64,000 nucleotides of DNA, from NCBI GenBank assembly GCA_963661195.1, contig CAVLBD010000007.1, forward strand, positions 2,963 to 66,962, read 5' to 3'. The stretch's first letter is position 1, and each line of letters begins with the position of its first letter. Shown one piece after another: positions 7,391 through 18,192 of the stretch. Position numbers and translations under genes: made by a program. A model generated the notes under the pieces. It was not told where the DNA came from. It made no database searches and saw nothing but the letters and a program-made list of their open reading frames with translations. This DNA comes from a bacterium (GTDB lineage: Bacteria; Bacteroidota; Bacteroidia; Bacteroidales; Bacteroidaceae).

Positions 7391-7452
7391 GCGGCAAACA
7401 TTCATTGCTTTGCCGCAAATGTTTTGGATTAAATGATAAAGGAGACATATCT

Positions 7453-8406
7453 ATGGTGCAGAATTACGACAAATATGTGAGATTTGACTGGGCTATGAAA
7501 CGTCTGCTCTGCAATAAAACAAACCATGTTGTTGTTGAAGGGCTTTTGTTTTCCCTTACGGGCAAGAAGATGTCTATTAAGACATTTTTGGAAAGTGAGG
7601 GCAATCAGGAAGACTTGCTTGACAAATACAACCGCGTTGACATGTTGGCGGAAGACGAGGACGGCGAACTTATAATTATTGAAATACAGAATAGCCATGA
7701 AATTACATACTTTCACCGCATGCTTTATGGCGTATCCAAAGCGATAACGGAGTATATTGATAAAGGCGACACATACGATAAAGTGCGTAAAGTATACTCA
7801 ATCAATATCGTATATTTTGAGTTAGGGCAAGGCAAAGACTATGTCTATCATGGGAAGACTGAGTTTAAGGGGCTACACAAGCCGCATGATCTGCTGAAGT
7901 TGTCAGCTCGGCAGAGCGAGAAGTTTTTGGGACTTAAGGGCATCGGAGTGCAGAACACGCAAGATGCCAGTGAATTGTTCCCCGAGTATTATATTCTTCG
8001 TGTCAATGACTTCGACAAGGTTGCTACGACTCCACTTGATGAATGGATTGAATTCTTGAAGACCGGTAAGATAAGCGAGACGACCAAGGCGGCAGGTCTC
8101 GCTGAGGCTCGTGAACAACTGCGCGTCGATTCTTTGCCGGATAAAGAGCGACGGGCTTACGATCGTTACATGGAATCCGTGCGACACATGCGTAGTCTCT
8201 TTGATACAAGCCGCGATGATGGTTTTAGTGAAGGTCGTGCGGAGGGTCGAGCAGAAGGTCGAATTGAAGGCCGAGCGGAAGGTATTGTCGAAGGCCGAGC
8301 GGAACGCTCTATGGAAATTGCACGGCAATTAAAAGCAATGAAAATGACTGACGAGCAAATTTCCGAGGCTACAGGATTATCTCTGTCTGACATTTCTAGT
8401 ATATAG
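7453..8406 (+). CDS. Rpn-family recombination-promoting nuclease / PD-(D/E)XK putative transposase
   Basis: N-terminus MVQNYDKYVRFDWAMKRLL. The nuclease core ...VDMLAEDEDGELIIIEIQNSHE (D...E-x-Q/K motif) and the C-terminal EGRAEGRAEG helical repeat tail are typical of the Rpn/transposase_31 family. I chose the start at the second Met because of the promoter position. Confidence 0.75.
   Translation: MVQNYDKYVRFDWAMKRLLCNKTNHVVVEGLLFSLTGKKMSIKTFLESEGNQEDLLDKYNRVDMLAEDEDGELIIIEIQNSHEITYFHRMLYGVSKAITEYIDKGDTYDKVRKVYSINIVYFELGQGKDYVYHGKTEFKGLHKPHDLLKLSARQSEKFLGLKGIGVQNTQDASELFPEYYILRVNDFDKVATTPLDEWIEFLKTGKISETTKAAGLAEAREQLRVDSLPDKERRAYDRYMESVRHMRSLFDTSRDDGFSEGRAEGRAEGRIEGRAEGIVEGRAERSMEIARQLKAMKMTDEQISEATGLSLSDISSI
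8230..8304 (+). repeat. In-frame 12-nt tandem repeat encoding (EGRA)n-like tail
   Basis: gaaggtcgtgcg/gagggtcgagca/gaaggtcgaatt/gaaggccgagcg/gaaggtattgtc/gaaggccgagcg/gaa encodes EGRAEGRAEGRIEGRAEGIVEGRAE. This is a coding repeat, not a CRISPR array. Confidence 0.9.
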
Positions 8407-8602: not shown

Positions 8603-8640
8603 AAAAGAAGGCAACCCAATGTGGGCTGCCTTCTTTTGTT
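8603..8640. terminator. Bidirectional terminator (closes the Rpn gene and the minus-strand Omp28/T9SS module)
   Basis: Stem AAGAAGGCA (8605-8613) / TGCCTTCTT (8627-8635), with an A-run upstream and TTTTG downstream. Confidence 0.8.
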
Positions 8641-8669: not shown

Positions 8670-10592
8670 TTACTTCACCATAACCTTCATTGTCTGTCCG
8701 TTGCTCATCTTCACGATGTTCAATCCCTTCTGTGGTGCAGAAAGAAGTTGTCCGTCTATGGTATAACGAGCTACTTCAACAACATTACTATCGTTAACAA
8801 CACCGTTGATGCCTGTTGCGTCGTACGGATAGTCACATCCTATTGAGTTCTCTATGGCATTGTCTGTGTAGTCATTTTCGTTGTGCTTGTTGAGGAATGC
8901 AATCAGCTTAAGGTCTTTCTTAACCCATGCTGTGCTCAATGTTATGCTGAAGTTCGCCTCAAAAGCGTTGTTGTTCCAAGTTACGGCTTCACCCCAAGGA
9001 CTGTTGGCATATCGAATCACGTGCATGTGATAGTAAACGCCTGAAGCTCCGCTCTGGCTCTTTGCCTTAAGGCTATCCTGAGTCAGATAGAGAGTAAGGA
9101 GTGCAGACTCCTGGTCAAAACCTTCATTGCACTCACCTGTTACCTTTACGTTCAATATAGTACCGTCTTCGTTAGGCGTTGCTTCAATGTTCAGTGCTGC
9201 ATTTGATGTCTCGGCAAGCTGGCTGTCGATAAATGCTGCCATTATTGTAGCACTGTAAGCGTTTATGCTGAAGACGTTGCCCAGGTTAGATCCATTGCTT
9301 GGCACAATCTCGCTGTTACGGTTTAACATTACACCAGGAGCAAATGTCGAACCTGTACCGCCATACATAAGGCTTGTGATCTGTGAGTCCCAGTTCTTTG
9401 TGAGCCAATCTGTATAATATCCTGAGTGGTGGCATGCTGCGTAGACGCGTGTTTCGTCAACTTTTGCCAGTGTATTGTGGAGTATTTTTGCACCTGTAGG
9501 GCATTGTGGACATTGCTCTGTGGTAAATTCTTCTACAACGCAGTTGCGGTCGTATACTTTGTCAACCACAACTAAAGAGCCATTGGCAACCTTGTCAGTT
9601 GACTGGTTCTCTTGTCCGTTAACTTTTGTGACTTCTATAGTTATTGCCTTTGTGCCTTTTGCTGTTTGAGCGGGAATGGTTACATCAAAATAACCACTGT
9701 TGCTTACTTCTATAGCAGAAGCAAGATCAACATGCTGTTCTGCGCTAGCCACACCGTCAACCGTGAGGATATAATCAAGACTGCTCACGGCTTCCTTACT
9801 GTTGTTGAAGAATTCAACGGAAATAGTCTTCTCTGCGTTAAGACCCGCAATGGCCTTCTTGAAATCGCTTGGAGTAACGTCATAGTCGTTGAATTCGCCT
9901 TCCACGATAAGCTGCACGCTTAGGTTTCCGTTGGTGTTGCCGAAGTTATACCAACCTTCTCCGCTACCGTTGTAAGCTGCTGAAATATTGGCATATATAT
10001 ACAAATACTGGTCAGATAATCCTTCGTTAACAATAGACAAGGGATAGCAATCATCAGTGTAATACTGTCCGCTTCTTGTTGCCTTTTGGTTGTAGTCAAA
10101 GCCTACTAAGTAGCTCTTGTCTGCTTCTATGGTATATGGTGTTTCCAAAGTTACCGTGTTCCATCCTTTAACTGTTGAAGCAACGTCCTGTGAAACAACA
10201 TCGCTAAGAATGCCCTTGTCGCTTACTGGAGCCACGAATACGCGTGAAGTTTCAAGAGCAGCGCAAAGACCGAAACGTATTGCTACAATCTTCTTGCCAA
10301 CATAGGGTGAGAGGATGTCTGATGTTAATTCTATTGCAGCCTTTGCACCGGAGAAAGCTCCATAGTTGGGGATACCTACACCATAATCTGCCAAAGCATC
10401 AGATGTGTAGAGACCTACTATACGCTGGTTTTCTTTAATGTCTGTCTTTGCAGGTGCCGCCTTAAGAGGTGCTACTATGGCCTTGAGGTTCTTCTCTACC
10501 GAGAGACCTTTAACCTTGGCAGCGTCTACTTGTGCGAAAGCTGCCGTGGAAGCAACGAAAATTGTTGCAAGCGAGAGTAAAAATTTTCTCAT
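8670..10592 (-). CDS. Multi-domain Omp28-like CxxC surface protein with T9SS C-terminal sorting domain
   Basis: Signal peptide ...AAFA|QVDA. Central thioredoxin-like segment VVEEFTTEQCPQCP (CxxC at 9501-9512), then YYHMHVIRY and WVKKDLKLIAFL, all shared with the Omp28-like lipoprotein at 11374..12186. The C-terminus ...YTIDGQLLSAPQKGLNIVKMSNGQTMKVMVK is a typical T9SS CTD. Confidence 0.7.
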   Translation of the reverse strand: MRKFLLSLATIFVASTAAFAQVDAAKVKGLSVEKNLKAIVAPLKAAPAKTDIKENQRIVGLYTSDALADYGVGIPNYGAFSGAKAAIELTSDILSPYVGKKIVAIRFGLCAALETSRVFVAPVSDKGILSDVVSQDVASTVKGWNTVTLETPYTIEADKSYLVGFDYNQKATRSGQYYTDDCYPLSIVNEGLSDQYLYIYANISAAYNGSGEGWYNFGNTNGNLSVQLIVEGEFNDYDVTPSDFKKAIAGLNAEKTISVEFFNNSKEAVSSLDYILTVDGVASAEQHVDLASAIEVSNSGYFDVTIPAQTAKGTKAITIEVTKVNGQENQSTDKVANGSLVVVDKVYDRNCVVEEFTTEQCPQCPTGAKILHNTLAKVDETRVYAACHHSGYYTDWLTKNWDSQITSLMYGGTGSTFAPGVMLNRNSEIVPSNGSNLGNVFSINAYSATIMAAFIDSQLAETSNAALNIEATPNEDGTILNVKVTGECNEGFDQESALLTLYLTQDSLKAKSQSGASGVYYHMHVIRYANSPWGEAVTWNNNAFEANFSITLSTAWVKKDLKLIAFLNKHNENDYTDNAIENSIGCDYPYDATGINGVVNDSNVVEVARYTIDGQLLSAPQKGLNIVKMSNGQTMKVMVK

Positions 10593-10614
10593 AATAAAAA
10601 TGTGTTTGTACGTT

Positions 10615-11298
10615 TTACTTTTGTATCATCTTAATTGTCTTGCCATTGGTATATTTAACCAATGTTACTCCGTTGGCAAGAGGGGCGCTAATCTGCTGTC
10701 CGCTCATAGTATAGAATGCTTCAACTTTTGCACCATCAGTAGATACGCCATTTATGCTTGCTGGCTCGGAATAAATAAAGTTAATCTTCACCTTCGGACC
10801 AAAAGCCTTGAATGTGTTATAGTCGGGCATTTCCATTTTGATTACGGGGTTGTAGACCATCTTTATTTCCTGGATGTAGAGTTGGAATGTAGCGGTGCTT
10901 GCACCATAGGTGGCTGGCTTCCATTCCGTTAAGAAATCTCTTGTCTCTTCTGCATCAAGCACATTTGGTTCTGTTGATCTTTCAGCTACGCTACCCACAT
11001 TCTGGCATGTGTTTGGGAAACAGCAGGAAATTTCACCATTGTCTATCTTCTCTACTGTTACATGGCAGAGTGTTGCCACCTCATCTGAAGTATTGTTCTT
11101 CACGTAGAGACCTGTTACAATTTGGACGTTGCCCAAAGTGTCAATTTCTTCAGTCTCAGTGCGTGTTAGCTCAGTGCCGTCGGCAATAACGTTGCCTGCC
11201 TTGTCAACAAACGAAAGTGACGTAAGGTCGGTCTGTGCGTTTGCCTGCATGCAAAGCAAGCTCATCCCGAGCAGAATAAAACTTTTAATTGTCTTCAT
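10615..11298 (-). CDS. Small secreted protein with T9SS C-terminal sorting domain (function unknown)
   Basis: Signal ...QANA|QTDL. Contains a four-Cys cluster (LCH...SCCFPNTC). The C-terminus AFYTMSGQQISAPLANGVTLVKYTNGKTIKMIQK matches the T9SS CTD pattern. Confidence 0.6.
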   Translation of the reverse strand: MKTIKSFILLGMSLLCMQANAQTDLTSLSFVDKAGNVIADGTELTRTETEEIDTLGNVQIVTGLYVKNNTSDEVATLCHVTVEKIDNGEISCCFPNTCQNVGSVAERSTEPNVLDAEETRDFLTEWKPATYGASTATFQLYIQEIKMVYNPVIKMEMPDYNTFKAFGPKVKINFIYSEPASINGVSTDGAKVEAFYTMSGQQISAPLANGVTLVKYTNGKTIKMIQK

Positions 11299-11373
11299 AT
11301 TGTTTTATTTGTTTTACTGTTATTTTGTTCTTTTCTTGTTTCTTGCAGTAGTAGTTTTGCTTTCCGTTGTTTC

Positions 11374-12186
11374 CTACTTAGCGATGAGAGGTGTTTTCTC
11401 AACTTGTTGCACACCGTCTGAATTGAATACAAACGCTACGACAGATAGATTCTCCGGCTTCCATGCATCGTCTATTGGATATGTGAATGAATCGGTGGAG
11501 CCTTCCCCTTTATCAATAATAACAATGTCGCCGTCTTTGTCGTTTACTGATGCACGGAAAACATGGTTATGCACGTATTCGTTGTTTATGCTGCCGTCAG
11601 GCATATATTGCATATCAACAATGTTGTCTTCAACCAACCATATCTGCACCTTGCCGTTATAATCCTGAATTGCGGAAACAGTAACGCTGATATCGGCAGT
11701 TTTCTTTGTGGCATCGTATGAAACTTTGTTGGTAATCATTACTGGTGGCTCGTTCTCAATCAGCGCCCCTACATATGCTGCAAGATAGGCAGTGTTATAG
11801 AATGGTGCTCCTCCGGCACGGTCAACCATACAGGCCGGTTGTGCCCTCACACCCCATGTGGTGTAGTAAGAGTTGCCTGTTTCTGTGGTCAGCGACCATG
11901 GCTTATGACCTTGTGCAACGGGAGAATAACCATAGTCGCCACCATATATTCCGACAGCAATGACGTTCTCTTCGCCATATTGTTCCTGAAGCTTGGCAAT
12001 CTCTTGGGCGGCTCTAGGGCAGTTGACACAACTCTGCCCTGTGAAGTCCTCTACCAATACATGTTTTTTTACTTCGGATGGTTCTACATATCTAATACGG
12101 TCGTTCTCGTCTATAGTGGAGCAGGCTGCGAACTGCAAAGCCACGGCAGCGAAAGTTAAACCGTAGATGTATTTTATGATATTCAT
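11374..12186 (-). CDS. Omp28-related outer-membrane lipoprotein (thioredoxin-like CxxC)
   Basis: Lipobox LQFAAC|S. VLVEDFTGQSCVNCP has its CxxC at 12019-12030. HNHVFR and ENLSVVAFV are also present. Size and motifs fit the Omp28 family named after Porphyromonas gingivalis Omp28. Confidence 0.7.
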   Translation of the reverse strand: MNIIKYIYGLTFAAVALQFAACSTIDENDRIRYVEPSEVKKHVLVEDFTGQSCVNCPRAAQEIAKLQEQYGEENVIAVGIYGGDYGYSPVAQGHKPWSLTTETGNSYYTTWGVRAQPACMVDRAGGAPFYNTAYLAAYVGALIENEPPVMITNKVSYDATKKTADISVTVSAIQDYNGKVQIWLVEDNIVDMQYMPDGSINNEYVHNHVFRASVNDKDGDIVIIDKGEGSTDSFTYPIDDAWKPENLSVVAFVFNSDGVQQVEKTPLIAK

Positions 12187-12192
12187 TGTTTG

Positions 12193-13860
12193 TTAGAAAT
12201 TATAGTTGTAAGACAGAGTGAAACCCTTGCTTGCCGGCACCATGCGGCAAACACCTCCTGAGCAGTTATAGCCAGCGCGAGTGCGTCCGTATCCTAGCTG
12301 CAGACGGTGTGAACCGGTGTTGAAGGTTATGAGTCCTTGATAGTAATGAAGGTGACTCACGTCGCAATTGTACATGTCGGAAACGGTGAACATCCAATGT
12401 GGAAGAACCGACAGTTCAAGAAGTCCGTAAACCCAATCGCCTTCGTCCTGCTTTGTTGACAGATACTGTGCTTCACCGCGAAGTGTAACCTTGTTGTTGA
12501 ACTTGTATTTCGCATCAGCTACAAAAATGTCGGAGTGAATCATTCCGCCTTCGCCCTCAATGACAGTCTTGTTATAGAACTGGTTCATATACATGAGGTT
12601 GAGTGTGAAGGAACGCGTGAACTTCTTGTCAAAATGAATGTTCAAGTCTTGATAGTAAGTCTGCGAACCCCATTTCCAAAAGGCTGAGCCATATCCGTCT
12701 GTTCCAATGAAATTTTCGCCTCCGGTGTGGTTGTTACGGTTGATGGCATGTATGTGAGAGAAATTAACCTTTACATTTGCACCATATTTTCCGCCGAGCC
12801 ATGTGTGTTTTTTGAATCTGTAGCCGAACTCTGCTTGATAGGCCCATTCACCGTTTGGCTGCGTGGCGTATGGATAGAGGGCGGCAAGAGCATAGGTTTG
12901 CTCTGTACTAAAGGCTGGAAGATTGTTGATGTTAGATGACAATCCCTGTACGCTGCGTTCGCTACGGAAGGTCATGTTGTCGGAACGCTTGGCCTGAAGT
13001 AACACGCTAAGCCCGTTTCTTGAATAAGATGTGGAGAGCATTGCTACAGTTCCCTTGCGGTAGATGTAAGGATAGAGGCGATCGTATGTCGGGTCTTCTG
13101 TCTTCCAGGCGTATTCGGCAAGGATATTGAAGTTGCCTGCCTGTAGTGTTGTGCGTACGTCGAAAGCGTTGACCGTGCTCGGAAGATTAAGGACATGAGT
13201 TGGATCTACCCAAATATCTTCATCGGCAGACTCGTATTTGTTCACCCATGATGCACCAAGTGTAAGGTAAGTATTATGCTCTTGCATGCTTTTCACCCAC
13301 TGGTCAACGCTCAGTTCCAGGTCTGCACCGCTCACCCAAGAGTTGTTCCATTTCCAATAGTGGCGCTGTTTTCCTGACAAAGCTTTTATTTGCACTCCCT
13401 TAACAGGCCGCAAAACAAGCTTTCCGCCGAGCAGAGAGTTGTCTATACCTAAGCTGCGCTCTTCATACGTCCGTAGGATGAAGCCAGAGCCGAACTGCTC
13501 ATAGAATGTTCCGAGCGTTAGATCCCAATTGTCGAAATGCGCCTTTATATAGAAATTTGGCACGCCCCATCCCTTGAATTTTTCTGTTGCAGTGGCATAT
13601 CCCGGCAGGGGATGTTTTGTAAATTCAAAGCGCAGTCCTGCATCAAGATGGTTGCTGCGTGCGGCAATGTCTGCATATGTATTGGTAAGTGCCCATTCAT
13701 TGGTTTTTTCCGTGCCGATAGCTTCATCGTCTTGCGGAATAAGGATGTCGCTCTGTATACTTCCGCTGATGGTAAACTTGTCGTCTGACGTTTCTTGTGC
13801 CTGCATAGCATTTGTGGCGGCGAGAAGTGCTGCTAGCGAAAAGAATAGTCTTGGTCTCAT
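12193..13860 (-). CDS. Orphan outer-membrane beta-barrel protein (possibly DUF6029-like)
   Basis: I place the start at Met27 of the listed ORF (MRPRLFFSLAALLAATNAMQA|QETS), which gives a proper signal peptide. Alternating hydrophobic beta-strand periodicity runs throughout. The C-terminus ...FTLSYNYNF is the aromatic OMP signature. The family name is from memory only. Confidence 0.6.
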   Translation of the reverse strand: MRPRLFFSLAALLAATNAMQAQETSDDKFTISGSIQSDILIPQDDEAIGTEKTNEWALTNTYADIAARSNHLDAGLRFEFTKHPLPGYATATEKFKGWGVPNFYIKAHFDNWDLTLGTFYEQFGSGFILRTYEERSLGIDNSLLGGKLVLRPVKGVQIKALSGKQRHYWKWNNSWVSGADLELSVDQWVKSMQEHNTYLTLGASWVNKYESADEDIWVDPTHVLNLPSTVNAFDVRTTLQAGNFNILAEYAWKTEDPTYDRLYPYIYRKGTVAMLSTSYSRNGLSVLLQAKRSDNMTFRSERSVQGLSSNINNLPAFSTEQTYALAALYPYATQPNGEWAYQAEFGYRFKKHTWLGGKYGANVKVNFSHIHAINRNNHTGGENFIGTDGYGSAFWKWGSQTYYQDLNIHFDKKFTRSFTLNLMYMNQFYNKTVIEGEGGMIHSDIFVADAKYKFNNKVTLRGEAQYLSTKQDEGDWVYGLLELSVLPHWMFTVSDMYNCDVSHLHYYQGLITFNTGSHRLQLGYGRTRAGYNCSGGVCRMVPASKGFTLSYNYNF

Positions 13861-13961
13861 TTGACTTTTTCTGTTGTGTGATTTTAGTTGACAAATGTTT
13901 GGCATGAAAGCAAATACCTTCAGCAAATGGCTCATCATTCATGCCTACATATTGCGAGAAA

Positions 13962-13997
13962 AGTCTTATACCGCATGTATTTATACGGCATAAGACT
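13962..13997 (-). terminator. Weak hairpin between tlpA and the barrel gene (possible attenuator or terminator)
   Basis: AGTCTTATACCG / CGGCATAAGACT with one mismatch. The minus-strand downstream run is only TTTTCTC. Confidence 0.3.
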
Positions 13998-14014
13998 TTG
14001 GATTTTACGTTGAT

Positions 14015-14539
14015 TTACTTGTTTGTCAGTTCTCTCACCTTTTCGATGAGTTCCTGTTCAGCTCCTTCTGTATAACCATTGTGCTTGTAGACAATCTTGC
14101 CGTCACCGTCGCAGATGATAACGAAAGGTATCATCTCTCCGCCAAACGACTTGCGGAACTCACTGTTTTGGTCAAGGATAACTTCGTAAGGCCATCCGTG
14201 CTGGTCAACGAGGGGCTTTACTTTGCTTGCGTTCTGGGCCTTGTCTATAGATACGGCAAAGACCTTTACGCCTGTCTCGTTCTGCCAGTCTTCATATACT
14301 TCGCCTATTGCAGAGAGCTCACGATTGCATGGTTTGCACCATGTTGCGAAGAAATCTATGATGAACGGCTTGCCATCGTTGCTTAATGTTGCCGTATCAA
14401 CTGTTTTCCCGTCGATAGTCTTCAGTTTAAAGGACGGAAGTTGAGCATTGGCACTCCCCACAGCAGCGAAAAACAACATTGCCAATACGAGCATGTTTCT
14501 GCCCGTTTTGCCCAATTTGGTGAAACAATCTTTTCTCAT
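14015..14539 (-). CDS. TlpA-family periplasmic thiol-disulfide oxidoreductase
   Basis: Signal peptide ...GSANA|QLPS. Active site FFATWCKPCNREL, plus the FAVSIDK and ...IPFVIICDGDGKIVYKH thioredoxin-fold motifs. Confidence 0.85.
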   Translation of the reverse strand: MRKDCFTKLGKTGRNMLVLAMLFFAAVGSANAQLPSFKLKTIDGKTVDTATLSNDGKPFIIDFFATWCKPCNRELSAIGEVYEDWQNETGVKVFAVSIDKAQNASKVKPLVDQHGWPYEVILDQNSEFRKSFGGEMIPFVIICDGDGKIVYKHNGYTEGAEQELIEKVRELTNK

Positions 14540-14591
14540 GAGGTTATTGGATCTTTAGTCGATTATTTAATAACATGCGTAATACTTTGGG

Positions 14592-14599
14592 CAAAAGTA
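14592..14599 (-). promoter_or_regulatory. -7 box (TActTTTG on the minus strand) upstream of tlpA
   Basis: Plus-strand CAAAAGTA, 53 nt upstream of the ATG at 14539. Confidence 0.45.
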
Positions 14600-14826: not shown

Positions 14827-15963
14827 ATGAGTGACAAACATAGCAACGAAAAGGATTGCTCATTTGATGAACTTCTAGAAGCTATAGAAGCATCGGTATG
14901 GACTCCTAACGAAACGGCTTGGTGCATTTACAATTACTTGAAAAAGAACTATGCCACCGATTCCTCAAAATTAGTGCGCACACTGCTTTCTGCATATATT
15001 AGGCTTGAGTTGGAGCGTCCTTCGCTCATACATTCGTGTATACTGAGCCTAGCAGTGAAAGTAAGCAATACATATGCGGACTTCAATTTTCCTGTGTTTC
15101 TTGAATATTGGGGATTTCCAAAACTTCTGCGCAGGGAGGACACGGAACGTCAGAAGGGAAAAGATGGAAGAACATTCTTATCATTAAAAGAACGGGCAGA
15201 GCGAAGACGGGATTCTTGGCTTCTTCATCATGGTGATAAAGGGAACTCAACCAACATAAGAACAATGTTTGCCGTGAAAGTTTTTGAGAAAGAGAAAAAC
15301 GGGCGAAACTTGCGTTTTGTAAAGTTGGTGGCTGGAGATGGATGGGAAACCATTGCTGAGAGCCACATGTTCCCATGCAAGCCATGGGAAATACAGGGAA
15401 CAATGTTTGATATCTTGATTAGAACTTCAGAGAAAGGAAACGACAGGGTGGTGGAGGTTGCGCCAACGGAAAAGACTCCGGAAGAAATTTTTCCTCCCGT
15501 CGCAGGCTATGTTGATGGTATAGACGTGGGGCATGGTCATGTCCACATTTTCGACGCAATCTCGCGCCACTTTGTTGCGGAATGCCCAAAGCTGAAATTA
15601 AGTGAGGGATGTTATGTGCTTTTCTCACCTATTGTCCCGGTTATGGATAAATTCAAGTCGGCTTATGTTATAAAGGCCTTTTCTCTTAGTGAGGGACGGG
15701 AAAAATTCGGATGGCTCGACTCGGACATTCTCTATGTAGATAGGGAGAAAAGATATTTTCGTTACAAGATTGTTTCGCCAATTAGTGAGACGCCAGAGGG
15801 GAAAGTTGAAAAAGAAGGAACTGCTCCATTAAGTTGTATTAACGATAGCCGGTTGGAGAAATCTTTGCATAATGGGCAGCGCATTTTCATTACGTTGTTT
15901 CTAAAGCGCGGCTTTGACAATATTAAGTGCAATCATGTGGCAGAAGCATTCTTGTTGGAGTGA
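14827..15963 (+). CDS. Hypothetical cytoplasmic protein, 378 aa, no recognisable family
   Basis: Long uninterrupted ORF with its own promoter box and no signal peptide. The N-terminal ~130 aa look helical. The C-terminal ~240 aa look like three beta-rich segments. I recognise no catalytic motif. Confidence 0.6.
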   Translation: MSDKHSNEKDCSFDELLEAIEASVWTPNETAWCIYNYLKKNYATDSSKLVRTLLSAYIRLELERPSLIHSCILSLAVKVSNTYADFNFPVFLEYWGFPKLLRREDTERQKGKDGRTFLSLKERAERRRDSWLLHHGDKGNSTNIRTMFAVKVFEKEKNGRNLRFVKLVAGDGWETIAESHMFPCKPWEIQGTMFDILIRTSEKGNDRVVEVAPTEKTPEEIFPPVAGYVDGIDVGHGHVHIFDAISRHFVAECPKLKLSEGCYVLFSPIVPVMDKFKSAYVIKAFSLSEGREKFGWLDSDILYVDREKRYFRYKIVSPISETPEGKVEKEGTAPLSCINDSRLEKSLHNGQRIFITLFLKRGFDNIKCNHVAEAFLLE

Positions 15964-16279
15964 TATTATGGGGCTGATTATCCTTGTAGTTGTGTATTGT
16001 CCCCTTCCAATATATATAGTGATAGCTTTGACACAAAAAAAGTCATAAGACAATCATTTTATTTTCAGTTTATTTGTGGCTTAAAATAGTATCATATAAG
16101 TATCTTATAGGTTTATTATGAATAAAACCCCGTTTGGCTTTAGGGTTTTCCCTAAAGAATAATATGGATTTACTATTTGCCGACATGAAAGGGAAATAGT
16201 AATTTTGCAACATGAAAAGTCAAAAGCTGACGCAATAACGGCAGCAATAGAAACATCAACCGATAAAAATTACACGATT

Positions 16280-16855
16280 ATGAAAAAGCTATACTCCTTA
16301 CTGACTATTGTTTTCATGACCATTGCTGCGATGACAATGACAAGTTGCGACCCTAATGAAGAAATGGCATACAACTTGTGGGGTGTGTGGCAAGGTAATA
16401 TGTATATGCAGAGTAGTTATAATGGGCGCGTATACCAGTCATCATACTCTGTCTTGGCCTTTGACAAAGATCCTTATGCCTATGCGCAGGGAACAGGATA
16501 TTGGATTGACTACTATAGCAACGCTCCTTTTGACAACTATTCCAGCCGCATAGAATGGAGGGTAGTCAACGGGGAACTACAGATATATTCAATAAAGGAA
16601 CAACGTACATACTATATCTATAATTATACTATGAATGGCAGGTATTTCAGTGGATATATTGATGACGGTGGCAGTAGCAACGGGGTGTATTTTGAATTGC
16701 AGAAGATATCATCGCCAAACTGGAGTGACTATGACTGGAACGGATATGACTACAATGACTATTACTATGGTTATAACTATGCTCCGGCACGCTCTGCAGC
16801 CAAAGGCGTGGATGCAGAACCTGTGAGAAGTGTTTGCAAGGATATAAAAAACTAA
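16280..16855 (+). CDS. Tyr/Asn/Asp-rich lipoprotein, function unknown
   Basis: The listed ORF opens at a TTG at 16205. The ATG at 16280 gives MKKLYSLLTIVFMTIAAMTMTSC|D, a signal peptide with lipobox. The mature part is aromatic-rich (YDWNGYDYNDYYYGYNY). Confidence 0.6.
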   Translation: MKKLYSLLTIVFMTIAAMTMTSCDPNEEMAYNLWGVWQGNMYMQSSYNGRVYQSSYSVLAFDKDPYAYAQGTGYWIDYYSNAPFDNYSSRIEWRVVNGELQIYSIKEQRTYYIYNYTMNGRYFSGYIDDGGSSNGVYFELQKISSPNWSDYDWNGYDYNDYYYGYNYAPARSAAKGVDAEPVRSVCKDIKN

Positions 16856-16871
16856 ATAAATTATTTATACA

Positions 16872-17402
16872 ATGAAGAAACTAGGATTATTGACAATGGT
16901 TATCGCCATGTTGTTTGCTACGGCTACAGCCATGGCAGGTGTGCAAAGTAAGAACACTATGCCTGACATAACTTATCCAAATGTGGGTACAAGCAACACA
17001 AATTACTGCAGAATTGCTTCCATAACATATGGCAGCACCATTACGATGGTTAAGCTGGTTTATAATACCGCCAAGGTAACATTTGAGGATACTAAAGGCA
17101 TTAGCATTGTTGACCAAGCTAATAACAAGACATATGAATTGAAGTTCATAAAAGGACTCAAGAGCGGTGAGGAAGTAGAACTGGAAGGAAAACGCTTCGT
17201 TACCCTTGTATTCCCCAAACTGAAAAAGAACCCACAAACGGTTAATATTGTATGGAATGGTGGCAATGATTTCCAATTTTTGAACGTGGATCTAACTCAG
17301 AGTGGCCCTATTCAAAGCGTTTTTGATAAGGATGCACTTGAAACAGAACTGAACAAGCAGTTTGAGAATGAAGGAATAAAATTCAAACAACTTGACAACT
17401 AA
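16872..17402 (+). CDS. Secreted hypothetical protein (176 aa)
   Basis: Signal peptide MKKLGLLTMVIAMLFATATAMA. It lies 16 nt after the previous gene and is followed by a strong terminator. Confidence 0.55.
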   Translation: MKKLGLLTMVIAMLFATATAMAGVQSKNTMPDITYPNVGTSNTNYCRIASITYGSTITMVKLVYNTAKVTFEDTKGISIVDQANNKTYELKFIKGLKSGEEVELEGKRFVTLVFPKLKKNPQTVNIVWNGGNDFQFLNVDLTQSGPIQSVFDKDALETELNKQFENEGIKFKQLDN

Positions 17403-17430
17403 GCACCCTATTTAATAGAGGATAAAAGGG

Positions 17431-17474
17431 AACTCCCGACATGCCGTTGAAAGCACGTCGGGAGTTTCTTTTTT
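17431..17474. terminator. Bidirectional terminator between convergent orphan genes
   Basis: Stem AACTCCCGAC (17431-17440) / GTCGGGAGTT (17457-17466), followed by TCTTTTTT. Confidence 0.8.
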
Positions 17475-17532
17475 ATTCTTTAGTTTTCTTGGTTGTTTCC
17501 TTTATATTGCCGTGATATTAGAAACATTGCTC

Positions 17533-18192
17533 TTATTTTGAAAGTTTTTGAGTAATCACGTTGCACTGTCCTGTTTTTGCGAAATTGAATGTGAAAGTGT
17601 ATAGTTTTACATAATCTGTCAACACATTGTCGTAGTATTCGCTTAATTTGATAGTATCAATAGCGCATTCGGTATAGTCATTATCGGACTTGCCCTGAAT
17701 ATTCTTTAGCACTTCACCGTATATGTTCTTGAACTGTGTTTTGTAATTGAACCCAAATCCTATATAATCGTAGTCCTTTTCGGTAGGTGTTTTTGTTGCC
17801 TTTTCTGTAATATCAACATGTACGTTTATATTTTGTGGTATCGAAGTTTCTATTATTTTGTTATAGGTATATACATTGCTGTATTTCCCGACAACTTCGC
17901 CGACCATTTCGATTTGTAATTTTGCCGTTGTGTTTTTTGTGTCAATAGCCTCGCGATGCTCAGTGCCATTTGAATCGGTGTATACGAATGTTGCGTCAAA
18001 ATTTCTTAGAAAGTCTTCGGTGAACATATATTTAACGTCTACCTCAGCCTTTGCAATGGTGTTCTTTACATCTGTTTGCGGGATATTCTTGTTTGTATCC
18101 GTGAAATCATAATCATCGTTGCTGCAAGAAGCTGCAGAGAAACCTAGTGATAATGCAACTGCGACACCCATGATAAATTTAATAGCTTTCAT
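17533..18192 (-). CDS. Hypothetical lipoprotein (219 aa)
   Basis: Signal/lipobox ...LGFSAASC|SNDD. No recognisable domain. Confidence 0.6.
   Translation of the reverse strand: MKAIKFIMGVAVALSLGFSAASCSNDDYDFTDTNKNIPQTDVKNTIAKAEVDVKYMFTEDFLRNFDATFVYTDSNGTEHREAIDTKNTTAKLQIEMVGEVVGKYSNVYTYNKIIETSIPQNINVHVDITEKATKTPTEKDYDYIGFGFNYKTQFKNIYGEVLKNIQGKSDNDYTECAIDTIKLSEYYDNVLTDYVKLYTFTFNFAKTGQCNVITQKLSK

Follow-up and report, generated by a model that had tools for sequence, protein, structure and literature searches.

Which envelope process would link a periplasmic thiol reductase, an outer-membrane β-barrel and proteins of the Omp28 family in a single gene cluster? This question is raised by a stretch of 64,000 nucleotides from a Bacteroidaceae assembly (GCA_963661195.1, contig CAVLBD010000007.1, forward-strand positions 2,963 to 66,962; in the following "the window"), where five minus-strand open reading frames (ORFs) spanning 8670-14539 encode a TlpA-like oxidoreductase, a barrel of the DUF6029 family, an Omp28-family lipoprotein and two further secreted proteins of 227 and 640 amino acids (aa), here called p227 and p640 (Table 1). 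Our preferred answer, to which we assign a probability of roughly 0.55, is that the cluster represents an outer-membrane or surface thiol-redox module with a three-gene core conserved across the Bacteroidota. The component families and the surface thioredoxin HBP35 of Porphyromonas gingivalis are already known; not found in the searchable literature were the conserved triad, the thioredoxin nature of Omp28 and the presence of Omp28, PorA-like and HBP35-like genes in one cluster.

Conservation of the tlpA-DUF6029-omp28 gene order

The distribution of the cluster was assessed with a DUF6029 profile (alignment A2) obtained from a scan of 1.84 billion representatives, 985 of which are available for DUF6029. 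This resulted in 80 species-representative loci with barrels 50-83% identical to the window barrel, which by record title include Prevotella, Hoylesella, Palleniella, Paraprevotella, Alloprevotella, Muribaculaceae and others. The ORFs of each locus were predicted and compared with the window proteins and with an Omp28 hidden Markov model (HMM); counts are given only for loci with enough flanking sequence. In 79/79 Bacteroidales species loci, tlpA immediately precedes the DUF6029 gene in the same orientation, being located directly upstream, and in 78/78 the gene for the Omp28 lipoprotein follows directly downstream. Since this gene order recurs in every one of these species-level loci, the arrangement is far beyond chance.

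A further scan started from a distant DUF6029 protein that itself shares only about 30% identity with the window barrel. It recovered 80 loci from metagenomes of marine, freshwater, soil, sediment and gut origin, with barrels 29-39% identical to this query. Even at this distance, tlpA lies directly upstream of the barrel gene in 65/69 loci, and an Omp28-domain gene is found within a few kb, either downstream or divergently upstream, in 43/44. In the initial annotation, the functional linkage of these genes depended on their being syntenic in other genomes, and this synteny is phylum-wide. Clustering of 1651 non-overlapping neighbour ORFs from all 160 loci revealed three recurring families only (158, 148 and 145 loci), all others being present at 20 loci or fewer; gene contexts annotated with Pfam in an independent index agree with the synteny of the triad. 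No gene for CcdA/DsbD, a TonB-dependent receptor, an ABC transporter or polysaccharide export recurred in this clustering of the 160 loci.

The remaining two genes of the window cluster behave differently. Among the 67 Bacteroidales loci with enough downstream sequence, 30 carry a p227-like gene, 49 a large gene with an Omp28/HBP35 domain and 25 both, and p227 was not detected at the distant loci. The conserved unit thus consists of three genes, and p227 and p640, by which it is extended in this Prevotella, are lineage-variable accessories. Bacteroides pyogenes also has a DUF6029 protein, which shares 47% identity with the window barrel. The genus Bacteroides is not known to have a type IX secretion system (T9SS); if it has none, the core triad can function in the absence of cargo of this system. 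Our literature search returned no paper that links DUF6029 with TlpA or describes a conserved TlpA-DUF6029-Omp28 triad.

Thioredoxin-fold proteins, barrel and accessory cargo

HMM searches recovered the families that had been proposed for the cluster from the DNA letters: AhpC-TSA/Redoxin for the TlpA-like protein, DUF6029 for the barrel, and lipoprot_Omp28 for the lipoprotein. They also placed an Omp28 domain in p640. The TlpA-like protein matches AhpC-TSA (PF00578, 76.6 bits, cutoff 26, E 2e-21) and Redoxin (PF08534, 70.9 bits, cutoff 26.6, E 1e-19). It has a hydrophobic signal peptide ending in GSANA before Q, counted from the likely true start M16, and a WCKPC active site (residues 67-71; 14327-14338). 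As in the TlpA/ResA/CcmG reductases fed by DsbD/CcdA, a secreted thioredoxin fold is combined with a WCxPC motif, and its HMM matches comprise ResA, StoA, DsbE and TlpA. In contrast to these, it scores below every NCBIfam equivalog cutoff (NF002854, 75.6 vs 170; TIGR00385, 52.2 vs 123; NF047696, 39 vs 230), which places it outside the specific ResA, DsbE/CcmG and TlpA functional groups. Furthermore, no gene for cytochrome c maturation, Sco/Cox or DsbD is linked to it; its constant partners are instead an outer-membrane barrel and outer-membrane-targeted thioredoxin-fold proteins. WCxPC is kept in most of the linked orthologues. These match the window TlpA with E values of 1e-29 to 1e-93, compared to about 1e-8 for unrelated TlpA paralogues in the same loci, so that the TlpAs linked to DUF6029 form a dedicated subfamily.

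The lipoprotein clearly belongs to the Omp28 family, as initially assigned (NF033782, 253.2 bits, cutoff 150; PF11551, 141.5 bits, cutoff 34.9), and has the expected lipobox LQFAAC followed by S. Its N-terminal half contains the motif C53-V-N-C56-P (12019-12030), and an Ig-like domain carries Y204-x-H-x-H-V-F-R. In 62 orthologues (44-94% identity), C53, C56, the preceding EDFTGQ, P117 and Y204/H206/H208 are all invariant. The redox motif of the lipoproteins reads C-(V/I/P)-N-C-P. In the AlphaFold2 (AF2) model (pLDDT 89.6), a strand (43-49) is followed by the CxxC (53-56) at the start of a helix (56-70), a further strand (118-121) comes right after the invariant proline, and residues 149-266 form a β-sandwich. 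The cysteines, for which the initial annotation had considered a buried structural disulfide as the opposing outcome, are thus modelled at the N-terminus of helix 1 of a thioredoxin fold. Foldseek placed HBP35 (5y1a) at the top (E 3e-11, TM 0.67, 252 columns), followed by the thioredoxin-like C-terminal domains of DipZ and then by the Omp28 fragment 2r2c. A PDB sequence search retrieved 2r2c for residues 101-256 and weaker DipZ and HBP35 matches around the CxxC. Together, the model predicts that a thioredoxin fold is joined to an Ig-like domain, an architecture shared with HBP35.

The redox half has been easy to overlook. PF11551 spans only residues 105-267, i.e., the Ig-like half, and leaves the thioredoxin-like half with the CxxC unmodelled; weak DUF1223 matches cover the N-terminal region. 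Since the Pfam model omits this half, "Omp28-related" annotations hide a redox domain. The same holds for the P. gingivalis Omp28 (PG2173; 2r2c), which the 270-aa window protein resembles by its scores above the HMM cutoffs, its lipobox and a YxHNHV(F/L)R motif: the solved 2r2c fragment comprises the Ig-like half only, whereas the window lipoprotein has the CxxC thioredoxin half. An Omp28-related selenoprotein is modelled as NF045500; the window protein reaches 62 bits against its cutoff of 200 and has cysteine at both positions. A swap of selenocysteine for cysteine is a mark of a catalytic redox site, and we therefore count this relative toward a catalytic role of the motif. No paper found in our literature search links Omp28 with thioredoxin or selenoproteins or calls it a thioredoxin-fold protein.

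A scan of 83 Omp28 orthologues, in about a dozen of which the lipobox was not located, showed an acidic stretch after the lipobox cysteine in most, usually with three to five acidic residues among the first eight (e.g., CSDIDEDER). This resembles the export signal of Bacteroidota lipoproteins reportedly described by Lauber et al. in 2016.

The same fold recurs in p640, which carries a signal peptide, C361-P-Q-C364 (9501-9512), the motif YYHMHVIR and a C-terminus ending in KVMVK. Its Omp28 domain covers residues 345-595 (PF11551, E 3e-15; NF033782, E 1e-18), and phmmer aligned residues 347-570 with HBP35 (5y1a, E 8e-8), YYHMHV being paired with YLHQHT of HBP35. For the N-terminal 340 residues, Pfam gave sub-threshold hints of DUF4082, Lectin_like and CARDB (Ig), and the PDB profile search with this part returned arrestin matches only (E>0.1). 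Conservation of the CxxC extends to these larger proteins: it is retained in 65 of the 67 large Omp28-domain neighbours (paralogues or orthologues), often as GTWCGWCPR, and in 87 of the 88 Omp28-domain proteins at distant loci. The single exception is an Omp28-type lipoprotein (L090, 4756-5607) that lacks the CxxC and retains YSHMHVLR.

HBP35 (PG0616/PGN_0659; 5y1a) combines a CxxC thioredoxin-like domain, an Ig-like domain with H-x-H and a T9SS C-terminal domain (CTD). It ranks first among the structural matches to the lipoprotein model and also aligns directly with the sequence of p640. The recombinant protein outpaces E. coli thioredoxin in insulin reduction, and its C48S/C51S mutant is inactive (PMC2907840); the protein also binds hemin and is anchored to the surface by the T9SS (PMC2907840, PMC3120885). 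The initial statement that Omp28-family proteins have no established biochemical function hence needs qualifying, as they share fold and family with a protein of thioredoxin activity and hemin binding. HBP35 differs from the window cluster in being transcribed as its own 1.1-kb mRNA, with no reported linkage to TlpA or a barrel (PMC2907840). The window encodes two copies of the fold, one being the lipoprotein and the other following about 340 aa of lectin-like/Ig domains at the N-terminus of p640, and the motifs are CVNC and CPQC, compared to C48-x-x-C51 followed by PGGK in HBP35.

A second described system is the T9SS cargo 00502, named "Omp28-related" by Prokka, which is the trypsin-recruiting factor of Paraprevotella (PMC9477747). 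It is a surface protein that depends on the T9SS and has variable N-terminal binding domains, as is predicted for p640, and the p640 orthologue of Palleniella muris bears the same product name at NCBI, "Omp28-related outer membrane protein". However, 00502 is much larger, with a WD40 domain and five Ig-like domains, and p640 is not orthologous to it. In Xylanibacter rarus, two genes come after the triad and a 206-aa gene (contig L001, 9587-13354 and 13758-15863): one encodes an Omp28-domain protein of 1255 aa with its CxxC at residue 925, the other a protein of 701 aa that has no family. According to the Paraprevotella trypsin study, Prevotella rara carries homologues of 00502 and 00509 only (PMC9477747). 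The two X. rarus genes may be these homologues, which would place trypsin-recruiting cargo beside the triad.

The barrel has DUF6029 as its sole Pfam match (PF19494, 638.3 bits, E 1e-191, profile positions 7-538 of 538). Homologues are 548-558 aa long, which fits a protein of 555 aa rather than the 581 aa of the full ORF, so that M27 is the likely start. A signal peptide ends in AMQA before Q, and the C-terminus reads LSYNYNF, as noted initially, with an aromatic last residue. The AF2 model shows about 24 long strands (pLDDT 71.7, pTM 0.66); it was built from a shallow alignment, so that its conserved loops are unreliable, and a further protein search with a diverse DUF6029 profile retrieved only proteins of 61-73% identity. 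Foldseek returned outer-membrane barrels only, namely generic large ones (MOMP, TonB-dependent transporters, FimD, LptD, AlgE) with TM values of at most 0.45, and the PDB profile search with the DUF6029 alignment yielded no sequence relative, only spurious RecA-fusion matches. We rejected the idea of a TonB-dependent transporter: DUF6029 is the only Pfam match, the first strand begins about eight residues past the signal peptide, and the Foldseek matches to such transporters are generic.

The most conserved features of the barrel lie in loops. The loop before the last strand contains C533-S-G-G-V-C538 (12247-12264, minus strand). Alignment A2 shows no variation at C533, G535, G536, C538 and P542, the equivalent C-x-G-G-x-C and proline are invariant in the distant alignment A5 as well, and the full motif in both reads C-x-G-G-x-C-R-x-x-P. 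The cysteine survey of the initial annotation had missed this pair; its other motifs were confirmed by script (CKPC, CVNC, CPQC and, in p227, CFPNTC). The three most conserved segments, FYEQFGSG and following residues (119-141), 295-337 and the CSGGVC hairpin (531-539), are the least confident parts of the model. All three are predicted to reside in extracellular or lumen-folding loops, because the usual topology of outer-membrane proteins puts both termini in the periplasm. The Y-E-Q-F-G-x-G loop, invariant in DUF6029 and predicted between strands 5 and 6 (loop 3), resembles the "PEFGG" motif of the porin L3 constriction loop. Two comparisons suggest themselves, namely the general porins with their L3 loop, for the conserved F-G-x-G between strands 5 and 6, and LptD-LptE, where a large barrel is also encoded beside a lipoprotein gene and LptD is among the Foldseek matches. 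These are analogies only: neither system shows sequence homology, and TM values do not exceed 0.45.

The remaining accessory, p227, has a signal peptide ending in QANA before Q and the conserved pair C93-FPNT-C98 (11005-11022), and it matched no Pfam or NCBIfam model. Of the four-cysteine cluster described initially, only this CxxxxC pair is invariant in the family, whereas C78 (in LCH) and C92 are not conserved. A profile of 33 family members matched the N-domain of PorA (6kjk) with E 1e-3, the alignment including C-F-x-x-C; the corresponding N-domain HMM scored 24.4 bits (E 2e-4 at PDB size), and hhalign gave 91% with a score of 35.6, compared to 6-13 for shuffles. The similarity is marginal and depends on the choice of alignment, as the match was lost with a 22-sequence sub-alignment of the N-domain and was absent with the single p227 sequence. 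PorA (PGN_0123/PG2172) is likewise a small T9SS cargo, whose 246 aa comprise a signal peptide, about 140 aa of Ig/FimH-like N-domain with C-F-x-x-C, and a CTD. In P. gingivalis W83, PorA (PG2172) and Omp28 (PG2173) have neighbouring locus tags (PMC9722745; PMC7712824 Table 2), and the position of p227, 75 nt downstream of omp28, matches this adjacency. We consider it likely that p227 is a PorA orthologue; it looks like a PorA-type rather than a redox protein.

T9SS-type C-terminal domains had been assigned to both accessory proteins. Taken by themselves, the last 79-89 residues of p227 and p640 match neither CTD model (TIGR04183, PF18962), even at E<=10. The assignment holds by way of their relatives: among 48 homologous tails, eight match TIGR04183 (best E 1.8e-7) and seven PF18962, window-type and canonical T9SS tails align in hhalign with 96% (E 2.4e-9), the p227 family profile matches the C-terminus of 8bbl, a Bacteroidota-type hexosaminidase (E 8e-4), and NCBI labels p227 orthologues "T9SS type A sorting domain-containing protein". 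In several species, of which some come from ruminants, accessory proteins carry dockerin type I repeats in place of the T9SS-type tail (L023, 10550-12763; L041, 11197-13119; L072, 10662-12977 and 2349-7184; best Dockerin_1 E 1e-11), and five of the 33 p227-family members have such tails. This cargo may be attached by a different surface-anchoring system.

Gene layout and neighbouring features

Table 1. Features of the envelope cluster and its borders in the window.
Feature	Position	Strand	Remarks
TAnnTTTG box	14592..14599	-	TACTTTTG; Bacteroidota-type -7 promoter box (candidate), upstream of tlpA
TlpA-like periplasmic thiol:disulfide oxidoreductase	14015..14539	-	174 aa; likely start M16 at 14494
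Stem-loop between tlpA and barrel gene	13960..13999	-	17-bp stem, dG -22.7 kcal/mol, z -8.6
DUF6029 outer-membrane β-barrel	12193..13860	-	555 aa from M27; ORF to 13938 = 581 aa
Omp28-family lipoprotein	11374..12186	-	270 aa; NF033782 and PF11551
227-aa secreted protein (p227)	10615..11298	-	Signal peptide, predicted Ig/lectin-like N-domain, T9SS-type tail
640-aa multi-domain cargo (p640)	8670..10592	-	Omp28 domain, T9SS-type tail
Bidirectional intrinsic terminator, cluster end	8603..8640	both	From folding energies

The five coding sequences are located, as initially described, between the TAnnTTTG box and the terminator. The last four are separated by gaps of only 6, 75 and 22 nt, and the gap between tlpA and the barrel gene amounts to 154 nt with the M27 start, in agreement with the initial annotation, or to 76 nt with the first ATG. 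The box is the only intergenic TAnnTTTG match on the minus strand near the cluster. Its role as a promoter is only suggestive, because the motif occurs 77 times in the window compared to 56 +/- 8 expected, which is a modest excess. Scanning the window for sigma-70 promoters and terminators was not helpful: the real terminator was absent from the output, and the scan is uninformative for Bacteroidota promoters. The terminator was described correctly as strong and bidirectional: its minus-strand fold has dG -29.3 kcal/mol (z -7.8) and runs into UUUUUG, and its plus-strand fold has dG -22.6 kcal/mol (z -5.0).

By contrast, the hairpin in the tlpA-barrel gap, previously called weak, turned out to be strong (Table 1) and is flanked by A/U-rich sequence. 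It is probably specific to this lineage, because the median gap between tlpA and the DUF6029 gene in related loci is just 14 nt. It may attenuate transcription, terminate it fully or in part, or stabilise the mRNA, and is a candidate for setting the ratio of TlpA to barrel.

The flanking genes are unrelated to the cluster and comprise an M16 peptidase, a transposase-like ORF and ORFs of no family. The transposase-like ORF (7405-8406, plus strand; PD-(D/E)XK nuclease family, PF12784, E 1e-21) lies beyond the terminator, convergent with the cluster, and has a C-terminal GRAEGRAEGRIEGRAEG repeat. Upstream of the cluster, four ORFs of 378, 216, 176 and 219 aa (14827-18192) have no Pfam family, two of them with lipoprotein-like or signal-peptide-like N-termini.

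A proposed surface thiol-redox module and its alternatives

How could these components act together? That thiol-redox chemistry functionally connects TlpA, the barrel and the Omp28-type proteins, as proposed by the initial annotation, is well supported as a hypothesis by conservation, synteny and fold; the envelope-spanning electron pathway that was part of the same proposal is something we only infer. In the redox module, TlpA would be recharged by an inner-membrane protein of the CcdA/DsbD type encoded elsewhere and would serve as a dedicated periplasmic reductant for the CxxC of Omp28/HBP35-type proteins. It would probably work at the periplasmic face of the barrel, because tlpA almost always directly precedes the barrel gene. 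The lipoprotein, with its acidic, export-signal-like N-terminus, would be displayed at the surface on or in the barrel, and thioredoxin domains in the dithiol form would act on extracellular ligands that contain disulfides or react with thiols, either reducing or binding them, as suggested by the insulin reduction and hemin binding of HBP35 in vitro. T9SS-anchored paralogues with variable binding domains would direct this chemistry to lineage-specific targets, and TlpA might act either once, during export, or continuously through the barrel.

Several points weigh against this reading. Contact between TlpA, barrel and Omp28 is hypothetical, and the surface exposure of the lipoprotein is predicted from its export-signal-like sequence only. 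The cysteine pair of the barrel, in a low-confidence part of the model, probably sits in the last extracellular or lumenal loop and not on the periplasmic side, and a periplasmic TlpA may be unable to reach it; the barrel model itself comes from a shallow alignment, its most conserved segments being the least confident. No CcdA/DsbD gene is linked at any of the 160 loci. In the window, the strong hairpin after tlpA could partly uncouple this gene from those downstream. Finally, HBP35 has no oxidative-stress phenotype, and its physiological thioredoxin substrate was not identified by the authors (PMC2907840).

Among the alternatives, capture or uptake of heme or metal survives best, and we regard it as unlikely. 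Here, Omp28/HBP35-type proteins would bind a ligand through Y-x-H-x-H and cysteines, the barrel would form the uptake channel, and TlpA would keep the cysteines reduced; by analogy, TlpA reduces ScoI and CoxB in Bradyrhizobium. This reading draws on HBP35, whose C-terminal part binds hemin with H204-H206 proposed as ligands and whose mutant grows poorly without hemin (PMC2907840), on the alignment of the H204-H206 motif with YYHMHV of p640 and the invariance of H206/H208 in the lipoprotein. The FYEQFGSG loop at the predicted position of a porin constriction loop and a Porin_4 match in one barrel homologue also agree with a channel, and an outer-membrane thioredoxin-like protein of P. intermedia is reported as iron-regulated in a study cited in PMC7999485. 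However, hemin binding by HBP35 is independent of its cysteines (PMC2907840). The strict H-x-H pattern is present in just 26 of the 88 distant Omp28-domain neighbours, compared to the CxxC in 87, and the 160 loci have no linked gene for a TonB-dependent receptor, an ABC transporter or another uptake function. Moreover, contigs of marine, freshwater and soil samples carry the triad as well, and heme auxotrophy is not known from free-living Bacteroidota, which we count against this reading.

A bolder form of the redox module is a thiol-disulfide relay across the outer membrane, in which TlpA, the DUF6029 barrel and Omp28 would form an outer-membrane counterpart of DsbD; we hold this to be rather improbable. 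TlpA would dock under the barrel and recharge the CxxC of the surface lipoprotein through the lumen, possibly via the CxGGxC loop, and the lipoprotein would in turn keep T9SS-anchored thioredoxin cargo of the HBP35/00502 type reduced on the cell surface. If true, this would be categorically new. It has two testable corollaries: Paraprevotella 00502 and other "Omp28-related" cargo may reduce the disulfides of trypsin and thereby destabilise it, and the barrel may be PorA's Sov-independent route to the surface.

The relationship to PorA raises the further option that the cluster serves T9SS-linked signalling or export, with p227 as the PorA orthologue, barrel and Omp28 as a Sov-independent route or docking site and TlpA as a folding helper. 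The CTD of PorA binds PorY and activates PorXY-SigP in P. gingivalis (PMC12152298). The profile match of p227 to PorA, the shared architecture and size (227 vs 246 aa) and the PG2172-PG2173 adjacency fit this option, as does PG2174, an uncharacterised protein in outer-membrane vesicles (PMC4335976). It is nevertheless improbable given the marginal match, the presence of p227 beside the triad in fewer than half of the Bacteroidales loci and its non-detection at distant ones. The DUF6029 protein of Bacteroides pyogenes, from a genus not known to have a T9SS, points in the same direction, and the invariant thioredoxin CxxC would be left without a role.

Could the cysteines form structural disulfides only, with no redox function, and the tlpA gene be linked for unrelated reasons? 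The p227 CxxxxC and the barrel CxGGxC do resemble hairpin-stapling pairs. Yet the modelled CxxC has the canonical geometry of a thioredoxin active site, catalysis by HBP35 depends on cysteines at the same position (PMC2907840), a selenocysteine relative is modelled as NF045500, and the near-universal adjacency of a distinct TlpA subfamily would otherwise be hard to explain, so that we consider this very improbable. A polysaccharide-export porin of the Wzi or PgaA type with unrelated passenger genes, suggested by the HHpred similarity of some Wzi-like barrels near OPX genes to DUF6029 (PMC9603273) and by polysaccharide-synthesis genes about 2-6 kb upstream in X. rarus, was rejected as the least probable option, since the Foldseek matches are those of generic barrels, no OPX/Wza, Wzx/Wzy or glycosyltransferase family recurs near DUF6029 at the 160 loci, and TlpA and Omp28 are nearly always adjacent.

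To return to the proposed surface thiol-redox module, previous work in P. gingivalis has dealt with Omp28, HBP35 and PorA one by one, and here HBP35-like, PorA-like and Omp28 genes share one cluster. TlpA-DUF6029-Omp28 is among the most rigidly conserved gene triads in this Bacteroidota scan, from gut Prevotella to marine and soil contigs, and the widespread DUF6029 family, so far with no assigned function, gains a concrete and testable one. "Omp28-related" proteins can be reinterpreted as predicted thioredoxin-fold proteins with an invariant CxxC. A link to the host is possible in two cases: Paraprevotella removes intestinal trypsin via an "Omp28-related" T9SS cargo (PMC9477747), and HBP35 supports the heme-limited growth of a periodontal pathogen. 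More generally, the triad raises the question of the route by which reducing power may reach the outside of a Gram-negative cell.

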